From: a virus
Lineage: Duplodnaviria > Heunggongvirae > Uroviricota > Caudoviricetes
Direction: 5' to 3' (one strand)
Length of the DNA: 64,000 nt
Virus record (IMG/VR): IMGVR_UViG_3300033068_001916
In this document: piece after piece, positions 5,461 to 55,976 of the stretch
How positions within the stretch are numbered: the first letter of the stretch is position 1
Layout of the letters: each line of letters opens with the position of its first letter
Position numbers and translations under genes: made by a program
The notes under the pieces: model-generated
What the model was told of the DNA's origin: nothing
Seen by the model: the letters and a program-made list of their open reading frames with translations, nothing else
Databases searched by the model: none

Positions 5461-5491
5461 TTTTTTATCAAGTGAGAATTTTGTATATTTG
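5461..5491 (+). promoter_or_regulatory. conserved phage promoter (upstream T-run, then -7 box TATATTTG)
   Basis: TATATTTG at 5484-5491, 20 nt before ATG 5511. Confidence 0.5.
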
Positions 5492-5510
5492 CATATTAAA
5501 TTAATATATC

Positions 5511-5828
5511 ATGGCAAAGTATTTAGGTGAAGTTGAAGTTAGCATGGATGATCCAAATAATCCATATTCAAAATTCACAACCAAGGACTGGATGTTTGAA
5601 TTTATAGAAAGATACGGATCAATAGACGGTTCACATCACAAGGATTGGGTAATGAACCAATGCACCAAAATCTATCACGGAACACCAGTTATAGTGAAAT
5701 TGGCATCATGGGATAATGGTGAAAGTGAATATAGAATAACGCTTGCTGAGGACTCAGATGATTATAAAAAATACGTCGAGATGACCGAGGAAGCTGGGTA
5801 CTCTATAGAGGAAGGGATTGCACCATAA
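5511..5828 (+). CDS. hypothetical protein
   Basis: ORF downstream of the conserved promoter. Confidence 0.55.
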   Translation: MAKYLGEVEVSMDDPNNPYSKFTTKDWMFEFIERYGSIDGSHHKDWVMNQCTKIYHGTPVIVKLASWDNGESEYRITLAEDSDDYKKYVEMTEEAGYSIEEGIAP

Positions 5829-5865
5829 TATTTCGTCACCACTAATTAAAATTAATAAATTAATT

Positions 5866-5896
5866 TTTTTTATATCGGAATAATTTTATACATTTG
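5866..5896 (+). promoter_or_regulatory. conserved phage promoter
   Basis: tttttttatatcggaa ... TACATTTG at 5889-5896. Confidence 0.5.
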
Positions 5897-5916
5897 CGAT
5901 ATAAAAATAAAAGACC

Positions 5917-6501
5917 ATGGATTTGACAAACTACGTAGACTGGTGCATAGCACAACACGATAACACCAACCACATGTATGACAAATATTTGCCATATTCA
6001 TTTCATCTAAGAATGGTTGATAGAGCAGCACAGCAATTTGAACATCTCCTGGATGACACAAAAGACATGCAAACCGGAAAATCTAGGGAGATTCTAGACG
6101 GAAGCAGATTGGGATTCGTTTCTCTTAGAATGGCTTGCAGAAAGGCTGGATGGGGTCACGATACAATAGAGGATACAAGAACATCCTATAATGATGCAGT
6201 TAATCATCTAGGAAAGGATGCAGCTGATATCGTTTATGCTGTTACTAACGAGAAAGGTAAAAATCGTGCAGAAAGAGCCAATGACAAATACTATGCTGGG
6301 ATAGTAGCAACGCCTGGAGCAGTTTTTGTTAAACTTTGTGACAGAATAGCTAATGTTCAATATGGTAAAATGACAGGTAGCGGTATGTATGATAAGTACA
6401 AAAAGGAGAACCCAAATTTCATTACTAAACTTGGTGGTGATGATAAGAACCACGAGTTAGCTCCAATGTTCGAATATTTAATCGATCTATTTAAAGATTA
6501 A
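5917..6501 (+). CDS. SpoT/RelA-type HD-domain (p)ppGpp hydrolase-like (Mesh1-like small alarmone hydrolase)
   Basis: GWGHDTIEDTRTSYNDAVNHLGKDAADIVYAVTNEKGKNRAER matches the RelA/SpoT HD block LLHDvvEDT...FG..va.lV.gVTK. Confidence 0.6.
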   Translation: MDLTNYVDWCIAQHDNTNHMYDKYLPYSFHLRMVDRAAQQFEHLLDDTKDMQTGKSREILDGSRLGFVSLRMACRKAGWGHDTIEDTRTSYNDAVNHLGKDAADIVYAVTNEKGKNRAERANDKYYAGIVATPGAVFVKLCDRIANVQYGKMTGSGMYDKYKKENPNFITKLGGDDKNHELAPMFEYLIDLFKD

Positions 6502-6503
6502 TC

Positions 6504-7397
6504 ATGATAAACAATTCAAATAAATTAGAGATCTTCGAGAATTTTATAGCTTTACCTAAAAAAGTAAAAGATTCACCTAGCGCTATCAATATTTCACCAG
6601 TAACAGTTGGCGGAGCTAGCTTTCTTAATGCGATGGCTAGAGATGCTGATAATCACGATAACTTCCTTAGAGATTCTATAGAGGTCCGTGCTGTTGACTA
6701 TCTACATTACATCCATATGCACGAGCACACATTTAAAAGTTGGCTCAAGCTGAAAGCTGCAGAAATTCTATTTCCAAACAAGAAGGTTAAAAAAATAAGA
6801 TATCAATCAGTAGATGAATTCTTTAATGATGTTAAGAATTCAATCAAAACGCTGGAGGTAAATCCAGGTTCTGTTGAGTTTTATACTAATGCAATAGAAA
6901 CTGCAAAGGAAAATGGACAGATAGCATTTTTAGAAATACTACGAGATAAGAAGGACGGGGTTCTTGCCGAAGCTAAGCTTCTAGAGGTTGGTGAGATTAA
7001 ATATGTTACCGAGGAAGATGTTGTTAAGTTTTATAAAAAAGCAAATCTTGGAAACAAGATGCTAAAGCTCACCTGGATGAAAAACTACGCTAGAATGATA
7101 CCTGAAGAGGTCATAGCGGAAAAGAAAAAGTATGATGCATCAGAATTATTTGATAATTATGTTATTTTACATTTCGATAAGCATGACAACTCAACCAAGA
7201 TGACAAAAGCGGAGGTAGAGAAAGCTAAGGATCCAATACTATTTGGAGTTCTCAAGGGGACTAGAAATTTATACTTTATAGGTGACTGGATTGATGAATA
7301 TTGCGATCTAACACTGGACAAATTTCTGTCTACACTCGAGATGGAGGAGGCAAGAAAGCTATCCGAAGATTCCATGAAAGAGGGATTAAAAATGTAA
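6504..7397 (+). CDS. hypothetical protein
   Basis: 297-aa ORF. Confidence 0.55.
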   Translation: MINNSNKLEIFENFIALPKKVKDSPSAINISPVTVGGASFLNAMARDADNHDNFLRDSIEVRAVDYLHYIHMHEHTFKSWLKLKAAEILFPNKKVKKIRYQSVDEFFNDVKNSIKTLEVNPGSVEFYTNAIETAKENGQIAFLEILRDKKDGVLAEAKLLEVGEIKYVTEEDVVKFYKKANLGNKMLKLTWMKNYARMIPEEVIAEKKKYDASELFDNYVILHFDKHDNSTKMTKAEVEKAKDPILFGVLKGTRNLYFIGDWIDEYCDLTLDKFLSTLEMEEARKLSEDSMKEGLKM

Positions 7398-7416
7398 TTT
7401 TTTTCATCATTTATTT

Positions 7417-54022: not shown

Positions 54023-54370
54023 ATTAACAAATTTCAAGAAACAAAACTGGTAATAATTACCAGATCTGACCTTCACACAGAAGGCTACCAATTACCACAG
54101 GCTTGTCACAGCCTTGCAGATTTTGCACATGAACATCCTACAAAGTTCAAAGACTGGAAAAAGACATCAAATTCTATAATTTGTCTCTCAGCAAAATCAG
54201 AAGCACATCTAATCAAACTTTACGAAAAATACCGACACGTCACAGAGGCATCATTGTTTTTTGAGCCTGATGTTGACGCCTATACTTCTGCGTGCTTTTT
54301 TGGCACCCCGCAGGTTAGGAAATCTTTGTCCCACCTTTCGTTATCTCTAAAAAATCTACAAACATCATGA
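54023..54370 (+). CDS. peptidyl-tRNA hydrolase PTH2-like protein with no canonical start codon (an in-frame ATG-ACT-TAG lies immediately upstream)
   Basis: Unlisted 115-codon frame LVIITRSDLHTEGYQLPQACHSLADFA...WKKTSNSIICLSAKSEAHLIKLYEK...EPDVDAYTSACFFG. It aligns to PTH2 block vivvRtDLkmgkGKiaAQcsHA..., then W..gq.kvvLka.de..L.el, then DAGrT.i..gs.TvlgiG. The frame begins right after a TAG at 54020-54022. The gene ends with a TGA that overlaps the next ATG. Confidence 0.45.
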   Translation: MNKFQETKLVIITRSDLHTEGYQLPQACHSLADFAHEHPTKFKDWKKTSNSIICLSAKSEAHLIKLYEKYRHVTEASLFFEPDVDAYTSACFFGTPQVRKSLSHLSLSLKNLQTS

Positions 54371-54804
54371 AAGGAATTCTAAAAACAAGAAACTTTGATG
54401 CTCTTAAAAAGCTGAGCACAAAAAGAGCATACGGTAAGCATAAGAGCTTATCAGCTAGAATGAGAAGATTAACAACAACAATGTTAGTCCTCGAGGAACA
54501 TGGTCTATTAACATCAGATCAACTTTGGGACTTGTTATTAATCTATATCAAATATCAGAAAGAGGCAGGAAAACTATATTATGTTTATGCTTATGCAAGA
54601 GAGGACAGTTGGTATAGACCAATCAATAAAATATTTACTGAATTCACAGAGGAGAATGTTAACGTCTACATAAACCACGTACTCGTTAATGCACATAGGA
54701 TATCAATGAATCTACCATACGAGCTACATAAAAAATACAGAGACATTATAATGGGAAGAGAAAAAGAATTAGAACTTAAAAACAAACAAAATGAAAATAA
54801 CTAA
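54367..54804 (+). CDS. hypothetical protein
   Basis: ORF. Confidence 0.5.
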   Translation: MKGILKTRNFDALKKLSTKRAYGKHKSLSARMRRLTTTMLVLEEHGLLTSDQLWDLLLIYIKYQKEAGKLYYVYAYAREDSWYRPINKIFTEFTEENVNVYINHVLVNAHRISMNLPYELHKKYRDIIMGREKELELKNKQNENN

Positions 54805-55144
54805 AGAACAACTAATAACAATCCACGACAGAGTGGTACAGGTGTTTATTGCAAAAACCGGATCTAAACCTGATTCTATAGAACTCCTATCAGATGGTGA
54901 GCTTTACTGCAGCCGATCATGGGGCGTATCTTATGGAGGAACTGAATATGAATCAGAGACGATAAACGCTGACGACCTAAAAATGGATCTTGACGAACAT
55001 ATACAAATTAGAAAGATCAAGGAGGAAGAGGAAAGGATCAAGAGGGAGAAAAAGCAAAGGGAAGATAGGGCAAGGTATGAGGAAGCCAAAAAATTGGAGA
55101 GAAAGAAGCAATACGAGGCCTTAAAGAAGGAATTTGATGCATAA
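54791..55144 (+). CDS. hypothetical protein (C-terminal charged coiled-coil)
   Basis: ORF. Confidence 0.45.
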   Translation: MKITKEQLITIHDRVVQVFIAKTGSKPDSIELLSDGELYCSRSWGVSYGGTEYESETINADDLKMDLDEHIQIRKIKEEEERIKREKKQREDRARYEEAKKLERKKQYEALKKEFDA

Positions 55145-55191
55145 TATACATTTATATAAAAAGATAAAAATAATCAAGCAGCGAGCTTTAT

Positions 55192-55542
55192 ATGAAGCGA
55201 AACAAACAACAAATTAACAAAAATAAATTAAAAATTATGAAAACAAAAGAACAAAACAGACAAGACGTAGTTAACTACTTAAGAACAACATCTAAGCATG
55301 CATTCACTAAAGGTGAGAAGGGAATATTCAAAATCGAGGAGATCGAGGAAGGTGTATTCAACGAGGTTACTGGTGGGATTCGATCCAAATCAAATATCAA
55401 TATAGATTGGTATATTGATAACTATAATAATGATGCAAAGAATGTTATTAAAAACAGAATCTTCTATCAGGGGCATGGATACAAGTCAATTAAGATGAAG
55501 TATTATAACAAATTGAATGAAACAGAAAAGGTGCTTAATTAA
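55192..55542 (+). CDS. hypothetical protein
   Basis: ORF before a bidirectional terminator. Confidence 0.4.
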   Translation: MKRNKQQINKNKLKIMKTKEQNRQDVVNYLRTTSKHAFTKGEKGIFKIEEIEEGVFNEVTGGIRSKSNINIDWYIDNYNNDAKNVIKNRIFYQGHGYKSIKMKYYNKLNETEKVLN

Positions 55543-55555
55543 GCACCTTTTTTTA
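55526..55555. terminator. bidirectional intrinsic terminator
   Basis: aaaaggtgcttaattaagcacctttttttt lies between convergent genes. Confidence 0.6.
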
Positions 55556-55898
55556 TTAGTAATTCTCCAAGAACCTCTATGAGACCAACGAGCTTTTGAA
55601 ACTCAACCTGTTCGAGTTTTATAGACCCAGCAGTTCCCTTAACTAAGGCTTTAACTAGAGCTTCCATCTCATCTTTTGCTTCTACAGGATCAAATTTTCC
55701 GTCAGCAGCTTTTTCGTAAACAGGTAATTTAACCTTAAAATGATGATAGGTTAGAAGTGCATCACCACCCTTTTCTTTAGCAGCTTCTGTTATTTTAGCA
55801 GCTCCAGCCAATCTAGTTTTTGCAAAATCTTCAAAGCTTTCACCTTTTTTATCAGCTTCATTAATGAAATCTGAATATAGTTTTATATAATTTTCCAT
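55539..55898 (-). CDS. hypothetical protein
   Basis: Minus-strand ORF. Confidence 0.45.
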   Translation of the reverse strand: MENYIKLYSDFINEADKKGESFEDFAKTRLAGAAKITEAAKEKGGDALLTYHHFKVKLPVYEKAADGKFDPVEAKDEMEALVKALVKGTAGSIKLEQVEFQKLVGLIEVLGELLIKKGA

Positions 55899-55944
55899 AA
55901 ATTAATATATTTTATCTATATATCATGAAATTTTATATAAATAA

Positions 55945-55976
55945 TTTTTTTATCTCGAGATTATTTCATATATTTG
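55945..55976 (+). promoter_or_regulatory. conserved phage promoter
   Basis: tttttttatctcgagat ... TATATTTG at 55969-55976. Confidence 0.55.

Follow-up and report, generated by a model that had tools for sequence, protein, structure and literature searches.

A 64-kb stretch of phage DNA (IMG/VR virus record IMGVR_UViG_3300033068_001916; 64,000 nucleotides (nt), hereafter the window) carries fifteen copies of a long composite motif that probably serves as the main promoter of the phage. Nearly all genes of the window lie on the + strand, and many are small ORFans. GC content is 33-38% through most of its length and 45-47% in the last 4 kb. Encoded proteins include NAMPT, PRPP synthetase, SmpB, Thg1, NADAR, an SPFH protein, and a protein with a T4 gp23-like capsid fold. 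The best protein relatives belong to phages of Tenacibaculum (PTm1, pT24), Flavobacterium ('immuto'), and Prevotella (Lak), and to a 595-kb uncultured phage. A megablast of 20 kb against cultured phages gave no match; relatives came through protein search and through IMG/VR, where pieces of four contigs (434, 430, 119, and 80 kb) are 74-88% identical to the window DNA. Judged by these relatives, the window is part of a ~430-kb phage of a Bacteroidota host. Sequences used for comparison are numbered below with the prefix L.

A composite motif in fixed register

The family emerges when the + strand TATATTTG copies of the window (n = 14) are aligned on this box: 13 of the 14 have in common the 30 nt upstream and ~17 nt downstream. 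A position weight matrix (PWM) built from the aligned sites adds two copies with the variant box TACATTTG, so that the box reads TATATTTG in 13/15 copies and TACATTTG in 2/15. The copies are as follows, the box coordinate being the T of its TA.

5459-5501, + strand, copy 1: box TATATTTG at 5484; PWM 46 bits; 1 mismatch; ATG 5511; lacks CG and has the weakest upstream half
5864-5906, + strand, copy 2: box TACATTTG at 5889; PWM 36 bits; 0 mismatches; ortholog L040; ATG 5917
7413-7455, + strand, copy 3: box 7438; PWM 61 bits; ortholog L046; predicted to drive open reading frame (ORF) 7465-7716 and the tRNA-like cluster 7721-8713
8916-8958, + strand, copy 4: box 8941; PWM 44 bits; ortholog L040; inside the predicted terminator hairpin 8924-8964
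10476-10518, + strand, copy 5: box 10501; PWM 55 bits; TTG at 10506 is a false ORF start
14351-14393, + strand, copy 6: box 14376; PWM 59 bits; ortholog L043
16783-16825, + strand, copy 7: box 16808; PWM 55 bits; ortholog L043
20530-20572, + strand, copy 8: box 20555; PWM 53 bits; identical in L178; ortholog L047
30344-30386, + strand, copy 9: box 30369; PWM 50 bits; orthologs L070, L042
33544-33586, + strand, copy 10: box 33569; PWM 45 bits; orthologs L036, L070, L126
36353-36395, + strand, copy 11: box 36378; PWM 54 bits; ortholog L070
42766-42808, + strand, copy 12: box 42791; TG replaces CG; PWM 55 bits; ortholog L110
46872-46914, + strand, copy 13: box TACATTTG at 46897; PWM 34 bits; ATG 46909 on the predicted +1
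48787-48829, + strand, copy 14: box 48812; PWM 62 bits; closest to consensus
55944-55986, + strand, copy 15: box 55969; PWM 60 bits; orthologs L037, L089; TTG 55974 is a false start, the real ATG being 56001

Searched on both strands of the window with up to 2 mismatches, the pattern TTTTTTT-N4-CG-N6-TT-N3-TAYATTTG has 15 matches against 0.03 expected (0/100 shuffles), and 15/15 lie on the + strand. Number and span agree with the initial annotation, which had listed fifteen intergenic sites sharing a bipartite motif between 5461 and 55976. The family is discrete: PWM scores of the 15 sites are 34-62 bits, and everything else in the window, on either strand, scores <8 bits. Enrichment belongs to the full composite alone, as the generic box TANNTTTG occurs 82 times in the window versus 76 expected.

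The two halves are inseparable. Scanned apart (upstream, -30 to -6; downstream, -5 to +24, counted from the box T), each returns just the same 15 places, and neither occurs alone or at another distance. The register is fixed in all copies, with 9 nt from CGAA to the box and 8 nt from the TTATTYCGRAA block to the box; the variable gap of 10-12 nt originally assigned to the two halves is thereby replaced by an invariant one. Expressed in promoter coordinates, the layout begins with A at -37, a T7 run at -36 to -30, ATTY at -29 to -26, CG at -25/-24 (13/15 copies), and RA at -23/-22. It continues with TT at -17/-16, the TA(T/C)ATTTG box at -12 to -5, C at -4, a purine at +1, TAATT at +2 to +6, and an A-rich leader. 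Both halves of the two-part design first described are thus real, but a third block had been overlooked, namely the purine at box+12 and the TAATT that follows it. The purine, the predicted +1, is present in 12/15 window copies and in 87% of 108 related copies.

All 15 copies are intergenic and in sense orientation, with a + strand ATG 5-45 nt after the box; the T-run of one (10501) overlaps the stop codon of ORF 9742-10485. The first gene downstream has no Pfam match in 11/15 cases. Palindromy of TTCGAA was considered as a dimer site and rejected, since it is not kept across copies (CCGAAA, CGGAT, CGAGA, CGATT).

The design recurs in related phages. The core pattern is found in at least 120 IMG/VR stretches, compared with 7 when one spacer is lengthened by 1 nt. 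A strict version (the core pattern plus A at -37 and TAA at +2), for which the IMG/VR list is complete, has 43 matches: 11 in the 434-kb contig, where they range from 40 to 399 kb on a single strand, 5 in the 430-kb contig, and 5 in the 119-kb contig, co-oriented within each. Across 20 ortholog pairs, fetched with a pattern that itself demands T-run, CG, TT, and box, identity is 95-100% at -37 to -30, -25/-24, -17, the box, +1, +3/+4, and +7/+8; it is lower at -23, -20 to -18, -15/-14, -10, and -1, and falls to ~60-65% in the flanks. Positions free of this fetch bias (-37, -30, +1, +3, and +4) are still conserved. Copies without CG also occur in relatives (L051, L110).

A scan of 185,000 bacterial species genomes gave a different picture. 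The first 120 matches listed are mostly chance or generic, with a median of -26 bits at unconstrained positions versus -1.6 for viral matches, and the full design among them is confined to one mis-binned copy of this phage. Contig CALAYS010000112.1 of the metagenome-assembled genome (MAG) 'uncultured bacterium SRR6231146_bin.88' matches window positions 18866-21316 at 99.96% identity. By its sequence, this 'bacterial' bin consists at least partly of the huge phage described here. The MAG stands as a species representative in the bacterial collection, and four further contigs of it carry the promoter motif.

The box is of the Bacteroidota sigma-A -7 type, as the initial annotation had recognized. 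The -7 element of Flavobacterium johnsoniae consists of T-12 A-11 T-8 T-7 T-6 G-5, lies 4-5 nt from the start, and excludes G at -10/-9 (PMC6847099); the consensus TAnnTTTG has accordingly been refined to TAHHTTTG (Baez 2019, PMC6847099). Either form is present in 15/15 copies. The sigma-ABfr promoters that Bayley in 2000 and Chen in 2007 are said to have described reportedly pair a -33 TTTG with a -7 TAnnTTTG. F. johnsoniae promoters mostly lack a clear -33, which is barely visible, and have AT-rich blocks near -18 and -28 (PMC6847099); the window motif shares these blocks and the weak -33. Purines are the favored start nucleotides in B. thetaiotaomicron (Ryan 2020, PMC7366714). The resemblance to Bacteroidota sigma-A promoters therefore extends to an exact -7 with H at -10/-9, a purine start after 4 nt (predicted here), AT-rich blocks at about -18 and -28, and an A-rich leader without a Shine-Dalgarno sequence. 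Unlike them, the window family has T7 and no TTG at -33, CG(R)A at -25 to -22, a conserved TAATT, conservation over ~53 bp, and zero spacing tolerance.

The G position of the -33 element was fixed by alignment with promoters read from the genome of Cellulophaga phage phi14:2. By this alignment, the T-run at -36 to -30 occupies the -33 recognition position itself. It does not lie upstream of -33, which argues against the UP-like element that had been entertained for it.

One copy bears on the predicted start. The ATG of ORF 46909-47475 lies exactly 4 nt past box 46897, on the predicted +1, and this box-N4-ATG arrangement is kept in L110 and L022, where the first codons differ mainly at synonymous sites. 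Its retention in relatives gives the predicted start independent support. The arrangement predicts a leaderless mRNA at 46909, and leaderless mRNAs in this phage. An ATG on the predicted +1 is also seen at other copies in relatives (L095, L019). TTG 10506 and TTG 55974, called as ORF starts, lie within the box and upstream of the predicted start and are therefore false, in line with the earlier dismissal of both. A search of the intergenic gaps of the window for another sigma-A-type promoter class, one with a canonical -33, found none.

Hairpins over the motif copies

The best simple hairpin within -75 to +30 of each site was compared with random windows. Hairpins of -8 kcal/mol or lower occur at 6/15 sites and of -14 or lower at five; among random windows, the -8 and -10 thresholds are reached by 4.3% and 2.3%, respectively. 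These six hairpins overlap or abut promoter copies in four registers.

8924-8964, + strand, predicted intrinsic terminator: -15.9 kcal/mol; perfect 15-bp stem; 11-nt loop holding the -7 box; followed by T5-6
10470-10499, + strand, weak candidate terminator: -8.4 kcal/mol; AU-rich 11-bp hairpin over copy 5; a weak member of the register of 20513 and 30329
20513-20553, + strand, predicted intrinsic terminator: -20.2 kcal/mol; 18-bp stem; also found by a terminator scan
30329-30365, + strand, predicted intrinsic terminator: -15.7 kcal/mol; 17-bp stem; register as 20513-20553
33517-33551, + strand, predicted intrinsic terminator: -14.9 kcal/mol; U-tract is the promoter T-run
36315-36344, + strand, predicted intrinsic terminator: -14.3 kcal/mol; separate, ending 9 nt before the promoter T-run

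The geometry differs from copy to copy. A hairpin followed by the T-run, as first described, is found at 33569 only. At 20555 and 30369, the T-run instead forms the loop and upper stem, the CGRA block contributes to the 3' arm (as CGGA in 20513-20553), and the promoter T-tract at about -19 to -13 serves as tail. Pairing of the 5' flank with the T-run/CGRA block was considered as the basis of the consensus and dropped, being true just for 20555 and 30369.

Comparison with relatives shows how these hairpins change. A U-A pair of 33517-33551 becomes C-G in L070 and L126 (CCUGAAU/AUUCAGG to CCCGAAU/AUUCGGG), a C-G pair of 20513-20553 becomes U-A in L047, and a U-A pair of 30329-30365 becomes A-U in L070. 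Two substitutions in the L040 counterpart of 8924-8964 both give G·U on the + strand and A·C mismatches on the other strand. At the place of 36315-36344, L070 has a hairpin of other sequence. Compensatory and G·U changes in four hairpins, together with replacement of a fifth, argue that the hairpins are under selection, and the + strand-only G·U changes at 8924-8964 point to an RNA hairpin in the sense transcript. A GC-containing hairpin, a U-tract, and upkeep at the RNA level are found at 8924-8964, 20513-20553, 30329-30365, 33517-33551, and 36315-36344. These features indicate that the five hairpins (-14 to -20 kcal/mol, with T-rich tails) act as + sense RNA terminators.

The perfect 15-bp inverted repeat around the -7 box of copy 4, reported at 8918-8965, is confirmed at 8924-8964, and its 5' arm contains the CCGAA of the copy. 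It had been proposed to be an operator or an RNA switch. The order of features (promoter 7438, ORF 7465-7716, tRNA-like cluster 7721-8713, hairpin 8924-8964) places it at the close of the cluster, and it has a T5-6 tail and the G·U changes on the + strand. The start predicted for promoter 8941 (8953) falls inside the 3' arm, so RNA from this promoter cannot fold the hairpin. The palindrome is accordingly best read as a plain terminator with an embedded promoter, not as an operator or riboswitch-like device.

Similar arrangements occur elsewhere. Cultured Tenacibaculum phage PTm1 (L248, record 80000-129999) has GC-cored hairpins with a 7-11-nt T-tract directly abutting the TATATTTG box, for example at loci 14388, 17064, 19341, 28251, and 43891. 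Many unrelated IMG/VR jumbo contigs (L025, L045, L117, L014, L113, and L016) have the same hairpin-T-tract-TATATTTG layout, and the T6 of the search pattern is there the hairpin loop. Fusion of terminator and promoter seems to be usual in large Bacteroidota phages and not peculiar to this genome.

How the motif may be read

The fifteen copies are probably the main promoters of the phage, starting most operons of the window and read by host RNA polymerase through the primary-sigma -7 box, with terminators overlaid where the preceding unit must close. Host polymerase with its primary sigma factor would read each copy through the canonical -7 TA(T/C)ATTTG. Transcription would begin 4 nt past the box, at the conserved purine, and the conserved TAATT-A-rich stretch would be the beginning of the transcript. 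The upstream half (A-T7, CG(R)A, and TT) would take the place of the canonical -33 TTG; as it is never seen apart from the box or at a different spacing, it is regarded as forming one recognition unit with the box. Tight packing of the genome would account for the terminator of the preceding unit being laid over the promoter in several copies, and the terminators would shield each promoter from read-through.

Several observations weigh against this reading. The canonical -33 TTTG/TTG, sought ~19-21 nt upstream of -7, is absent in 15/15 copies, and its G position is occupied by T, which bears out the earlier remark that the host element is missing. The phi14:2 promoters, as read from the genome, carry an A-run and cTTGac/TTTGCA at -33. 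The CG conserved in mid-spacer has no known role in Bacteroidota sigma-A promoters. None of the first 120 bacterial matches listed has the full design in an identifiable host, and there is accordingly no direct sign among them of host polymerase alone using it. Host promoters are not conserved so strictly over ~53 bp, and an extra factor is therefore conceivable; the conserved footprint is itself partly biased by the pattern with which the orthologs were fetched. Nine of the 15 copies lack a convincing hairpin; the physical fusion of terminator and promoter that the initial annotation proposed for several copies is supported for some, where hairpins exceed the random rate and show compensatory changes. 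A test for cassette-bounded indels found three that abut one copy each (5211-5855, 33584-34401, and 48128-48771) and none bounded by two. The motif, its register, its strand and gene context, its conservation, and the covariation of the hairpins are observed directly; we infer the start site, the polymerase and sigma factor used, promoter strength, and timing from sequence.

The initial annotation had suggested a phage-specific specificity factor. In the strongest rival reading, the promoters are the same and host sigma-A acts on the -7 box, but a phage activator bound to A-T7-N4-CGRA (-37 to -22) replaces -33 recognition. Such promoters would be T4-middle-like, in the manner of MotA/AsiA, and would form a middle class rather than an immediate-early one. 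The block that substitutes for the missing -33 TTG is conserved more strictly than any host -33, with T at the G position in 100% of 108 related copies. The block keeps an invariant distance to the box, the CG at -25/-24 has no counterpart in the host consensus (PMC6847099) or in the phi14:2 promoters used by host polymerase, and the full design appears among the bacterial matches listed in just one mis-binned phage. However, F. johnsoniae promoters often lack a recognizable -33 and still work (PMC6847099), and functional-looking copies without CG exist both in the window (5484, 42791) and in relatives (L051, L110). No sigma, anti-sigma, MotA, AsiA, or RNA polymerase domain was found by Pfam in the ~100 window proteins, which represent ~15% of the genome and among which a non-homologous factor would escape; nor was any other sigma-A-type class seen in the 64 kb to express such a factor first. 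An activator of this kind is possible but unlikely. The bolder version, in which A-T7-N4-CG(R)A is the site of a phage factor that constitutes an independent, non-homologous counterpart of MotA/AsiA, used genome-wide in a clade of 400-kb phages, is more doubtful still.

Reports of sigma factors or RNA polymerase subunits encoded by huge phages are common, and a phage-encoded sigma factor or polymerase could recognize the motif in place of the host primary sigma. The great length of the motif and its genome-wide, co-oriented distribution would suit such an enzyme, but the -7 block is the exact Bacteroidota primary-sigma element, down to the exclusion of G at -10/-9, cultured relatives such as PTm1 have the same TATATTTG box behind terminators, and the Pfam scan of ~100 window proteins returned neither domain. 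This explanation is improbable. Even harder to sustain is the idea that the repeat only resembles a promoter and is chiefly either a dispersed sequence serving recombination or mobility or the decayed relic of a terminator. Some synteny breaks do adjoin copies (the three indels above), PeSL elements of T4-like phages have been proposed as recombination sites (PMC2839356), and the CGRA block has the position of a 3' arm of the fused terminator at 20555, at 30369, and in PTm1-type cassettes. Yet of 81 alignment break-points just 6 are found 60 nt or less from a copy (~3% expected by chance), a surplus for which intergenic bias could be a sufficient explanation. The copies all run in the direction of the genes, stand 5-45 nt before an ATG, and have a perfect -7 box, with a purine at the expected start in 12/15, and the conserved positions persist in the 9/15 copies where no hairpin forms. 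A role other than that of a promoter is very improbable on these grounds.

If the copies are host-read promoters, they lay out the operons along 64 kb of an uncultured 430-kb phage, with 15 predicted start points, ~10 candidate terminators, and at least 2 false ORF starts corrected. T4-style reuse of one promoter laid over the previous terminator would then extend to Bacteroidota megaphages, on the unusual -7 type of that phylum. Upstream recognition is poorly defined even for Bacteroidota hosts, and a spacing-invariant upstream half without a -33 TTG offers a test case for how a primary sigma, or a phage factor, reads upstream DNA. In Bacteroidota genetics, the cassettes may also find use as strong, insulated promoter-terminator parts.

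Neighboring features and known systems

The ORF-poor stretches 7721-8713 and 51470-53547 (both +) contain tRNA-like genes. ARAGORN finds 0 tRNAs by default and 9 when introns are allowed, each interrupted around the anticodon loop by an insertion of 16-77 nt; tRNA matches in Rfam are 90-153 nt long, and the L040 ortholog keeps a 31-nt insertion. Insertions of 16-77 nt are too short for group I introns. Lak megaphages have 'enigmatic' introns in a few tRNAs (PMC6784885), whereas here an insertion is present in every detected tRNA. A 59-nt element at 7721-7779 (+) scores 47 bits against the tRNA model; its acceptor, D, and T arms are present, and the anticodon arm is missing altogether. Its neighbor, the tRNA-like gene 7981-8107, has a weak, below-threshold tmRNA match (18.6 bits), and ORF 2094-2558 clearly encodes an SmpB homologue (Pfam E = 5e-45). 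The phage may possess a trans-translation or tRNA-mimic function.

GATATATA-N18-ATG is another candidate start signal, with 4 exact copies versus 0.08 expected (0/100 shuffles) and conservation in relatives. The sites are:

35399-35427, + strand, GATATATA-N18-ATG
41449-41477, - strand, GATATATA-N18-ATG
55896-55924, - strand, GATATATA-N18-ATG
57976-58004, - strand, GATATATA-N18-ATG

Further GATATATA copies lie at 2550 (+) and at 45613-45620 (-), the spacing at 45620 being N4. All four minus-strand copies are directly upstream of the four minus-strand transcription units. Both + strand copies overlap the Asp-Ile-stop codons of the preceding ORF, and coding constraint could explain those two. The signal may represent another promoter class or a translation-initiation signal. 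A TTATTTTTTT..TATATATCT motif of two divergent gaps was dropped in favor of the shorter GATATATA-N18-ATG, as it has just 1-2 copies.

Three other regions are of note. The gene at 56001-56705 (+), the first after promoter 55969, encodes two tandem Myb/SANT-like helix-turn-helix repeats, with sub-threshold Pfam matches to GcrA and Myb DNA-binding domains (E ~4e-4 to 6e-3); its product is the sole candidate DNA-binding regulator seen in the window. The 299-aa protein encoded at 38966-39865 (+) matches the T4 Gp23 major-capsid family (Pfam E = 3e-12) and is short for a major capsid protein; its gene lies in an operon behind promoter 36378 with those of SPFH/Band-7 and nucleoside deoxyribosyltransferase-like proteins. 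The GC-rich segment 60300-63700 (45-47%) consists of GGT/ACT/AGT/GGA-type triplet repeats (Gly/Ser/Thr-rich, collagen-like). Both strands have long ORFs there, in several frames, which makes ORF calls unreliable, and spurious intron-containing tRNA calls occur as well.

Some gene-sized segments of the window are absent from close relatives: 5211-5855 from L046, 33584-34401 from L126, and 48128-48771 from L110 and L022. This pattern suggests gene gain or loss beside the cassettes, with no clear sign of cassette-to-cassette recombination or of mini-circles.

No description of a T7-N4-CG upstream half, or of a phage promoter of such form, was found in the incomplete collection of literature consulted. 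Among characterized systems of Bacteroidota phages, the crAss-like Cellulophaga phage phi14:2 has mapped, extended tripartite middle promoters that are used by host RNA polymerase (Drobysheva et al., bioRxiv 10.1101/2020.03.07.982082). Both designs are long multi-block consensus sequences that end in TAnnTTTG and are used many times, including before tRNA genes, and in both the ATG lies a few nt past the box in some copies. The phi14:2 promoters have a canonical -33, whereas the window family has none.

Middle promoters of T4 have a MotA box at -30, keep the sigma-70 -10 element, and depend on sigma appropriation by AsiA. The window family is comparable by analogy only: both retain a downstream element of host type and carry, at a fixed distance from it, a phage-specific box in place of the upstream element. 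It differs in that no homologue of MotA or AsiA was found among the ~100 window proteins (~15% of the genome).

The closest parallel lies in the PeSLs of T4-like phages, which number ~50 per genome and combine strong sigma-70 early promoters, an AT-rich upstream stretch, and a stem-loop terminator in any of five positions relative to the promoter, with ORFans mostly downstream (Arbiol 2010, PMC2839356; Comeau 2014, PMC4122927). Promoter and terminator activities of PeSLs have been demonstrated by reporter assays, and PeSLs have been proposed as recombination sites (PMC2839356; PMC4122927). The window family likewise consists of many near-identical primary-sigma-type promoters with A/T-rich upstream sequence, in the intergenic gaps of a large myovirus-type genome and mostly followed by ORFans. 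At the 6/15 copies that have a stem-loop, its position varies too (ahead of the promoter, across the upstream element, between the two elements, or across the downstream one), and the window also encodes a T4 gp23-like capsid-fold protein. The differences are of type and extent: PeSLs have sigma-70 -35/-10 promoters and G4/C4 stems, whereas the window copies have the Bacteroidota -7 type, no Shine-Dalgarno sequence, and CCGAA/TTCGG stems, with a stem-loop at just 6/15 copies (40%). By analogy, the family is a Bacteroidota counterpart of the PeSL cassettes, useful although not surprising in kind.

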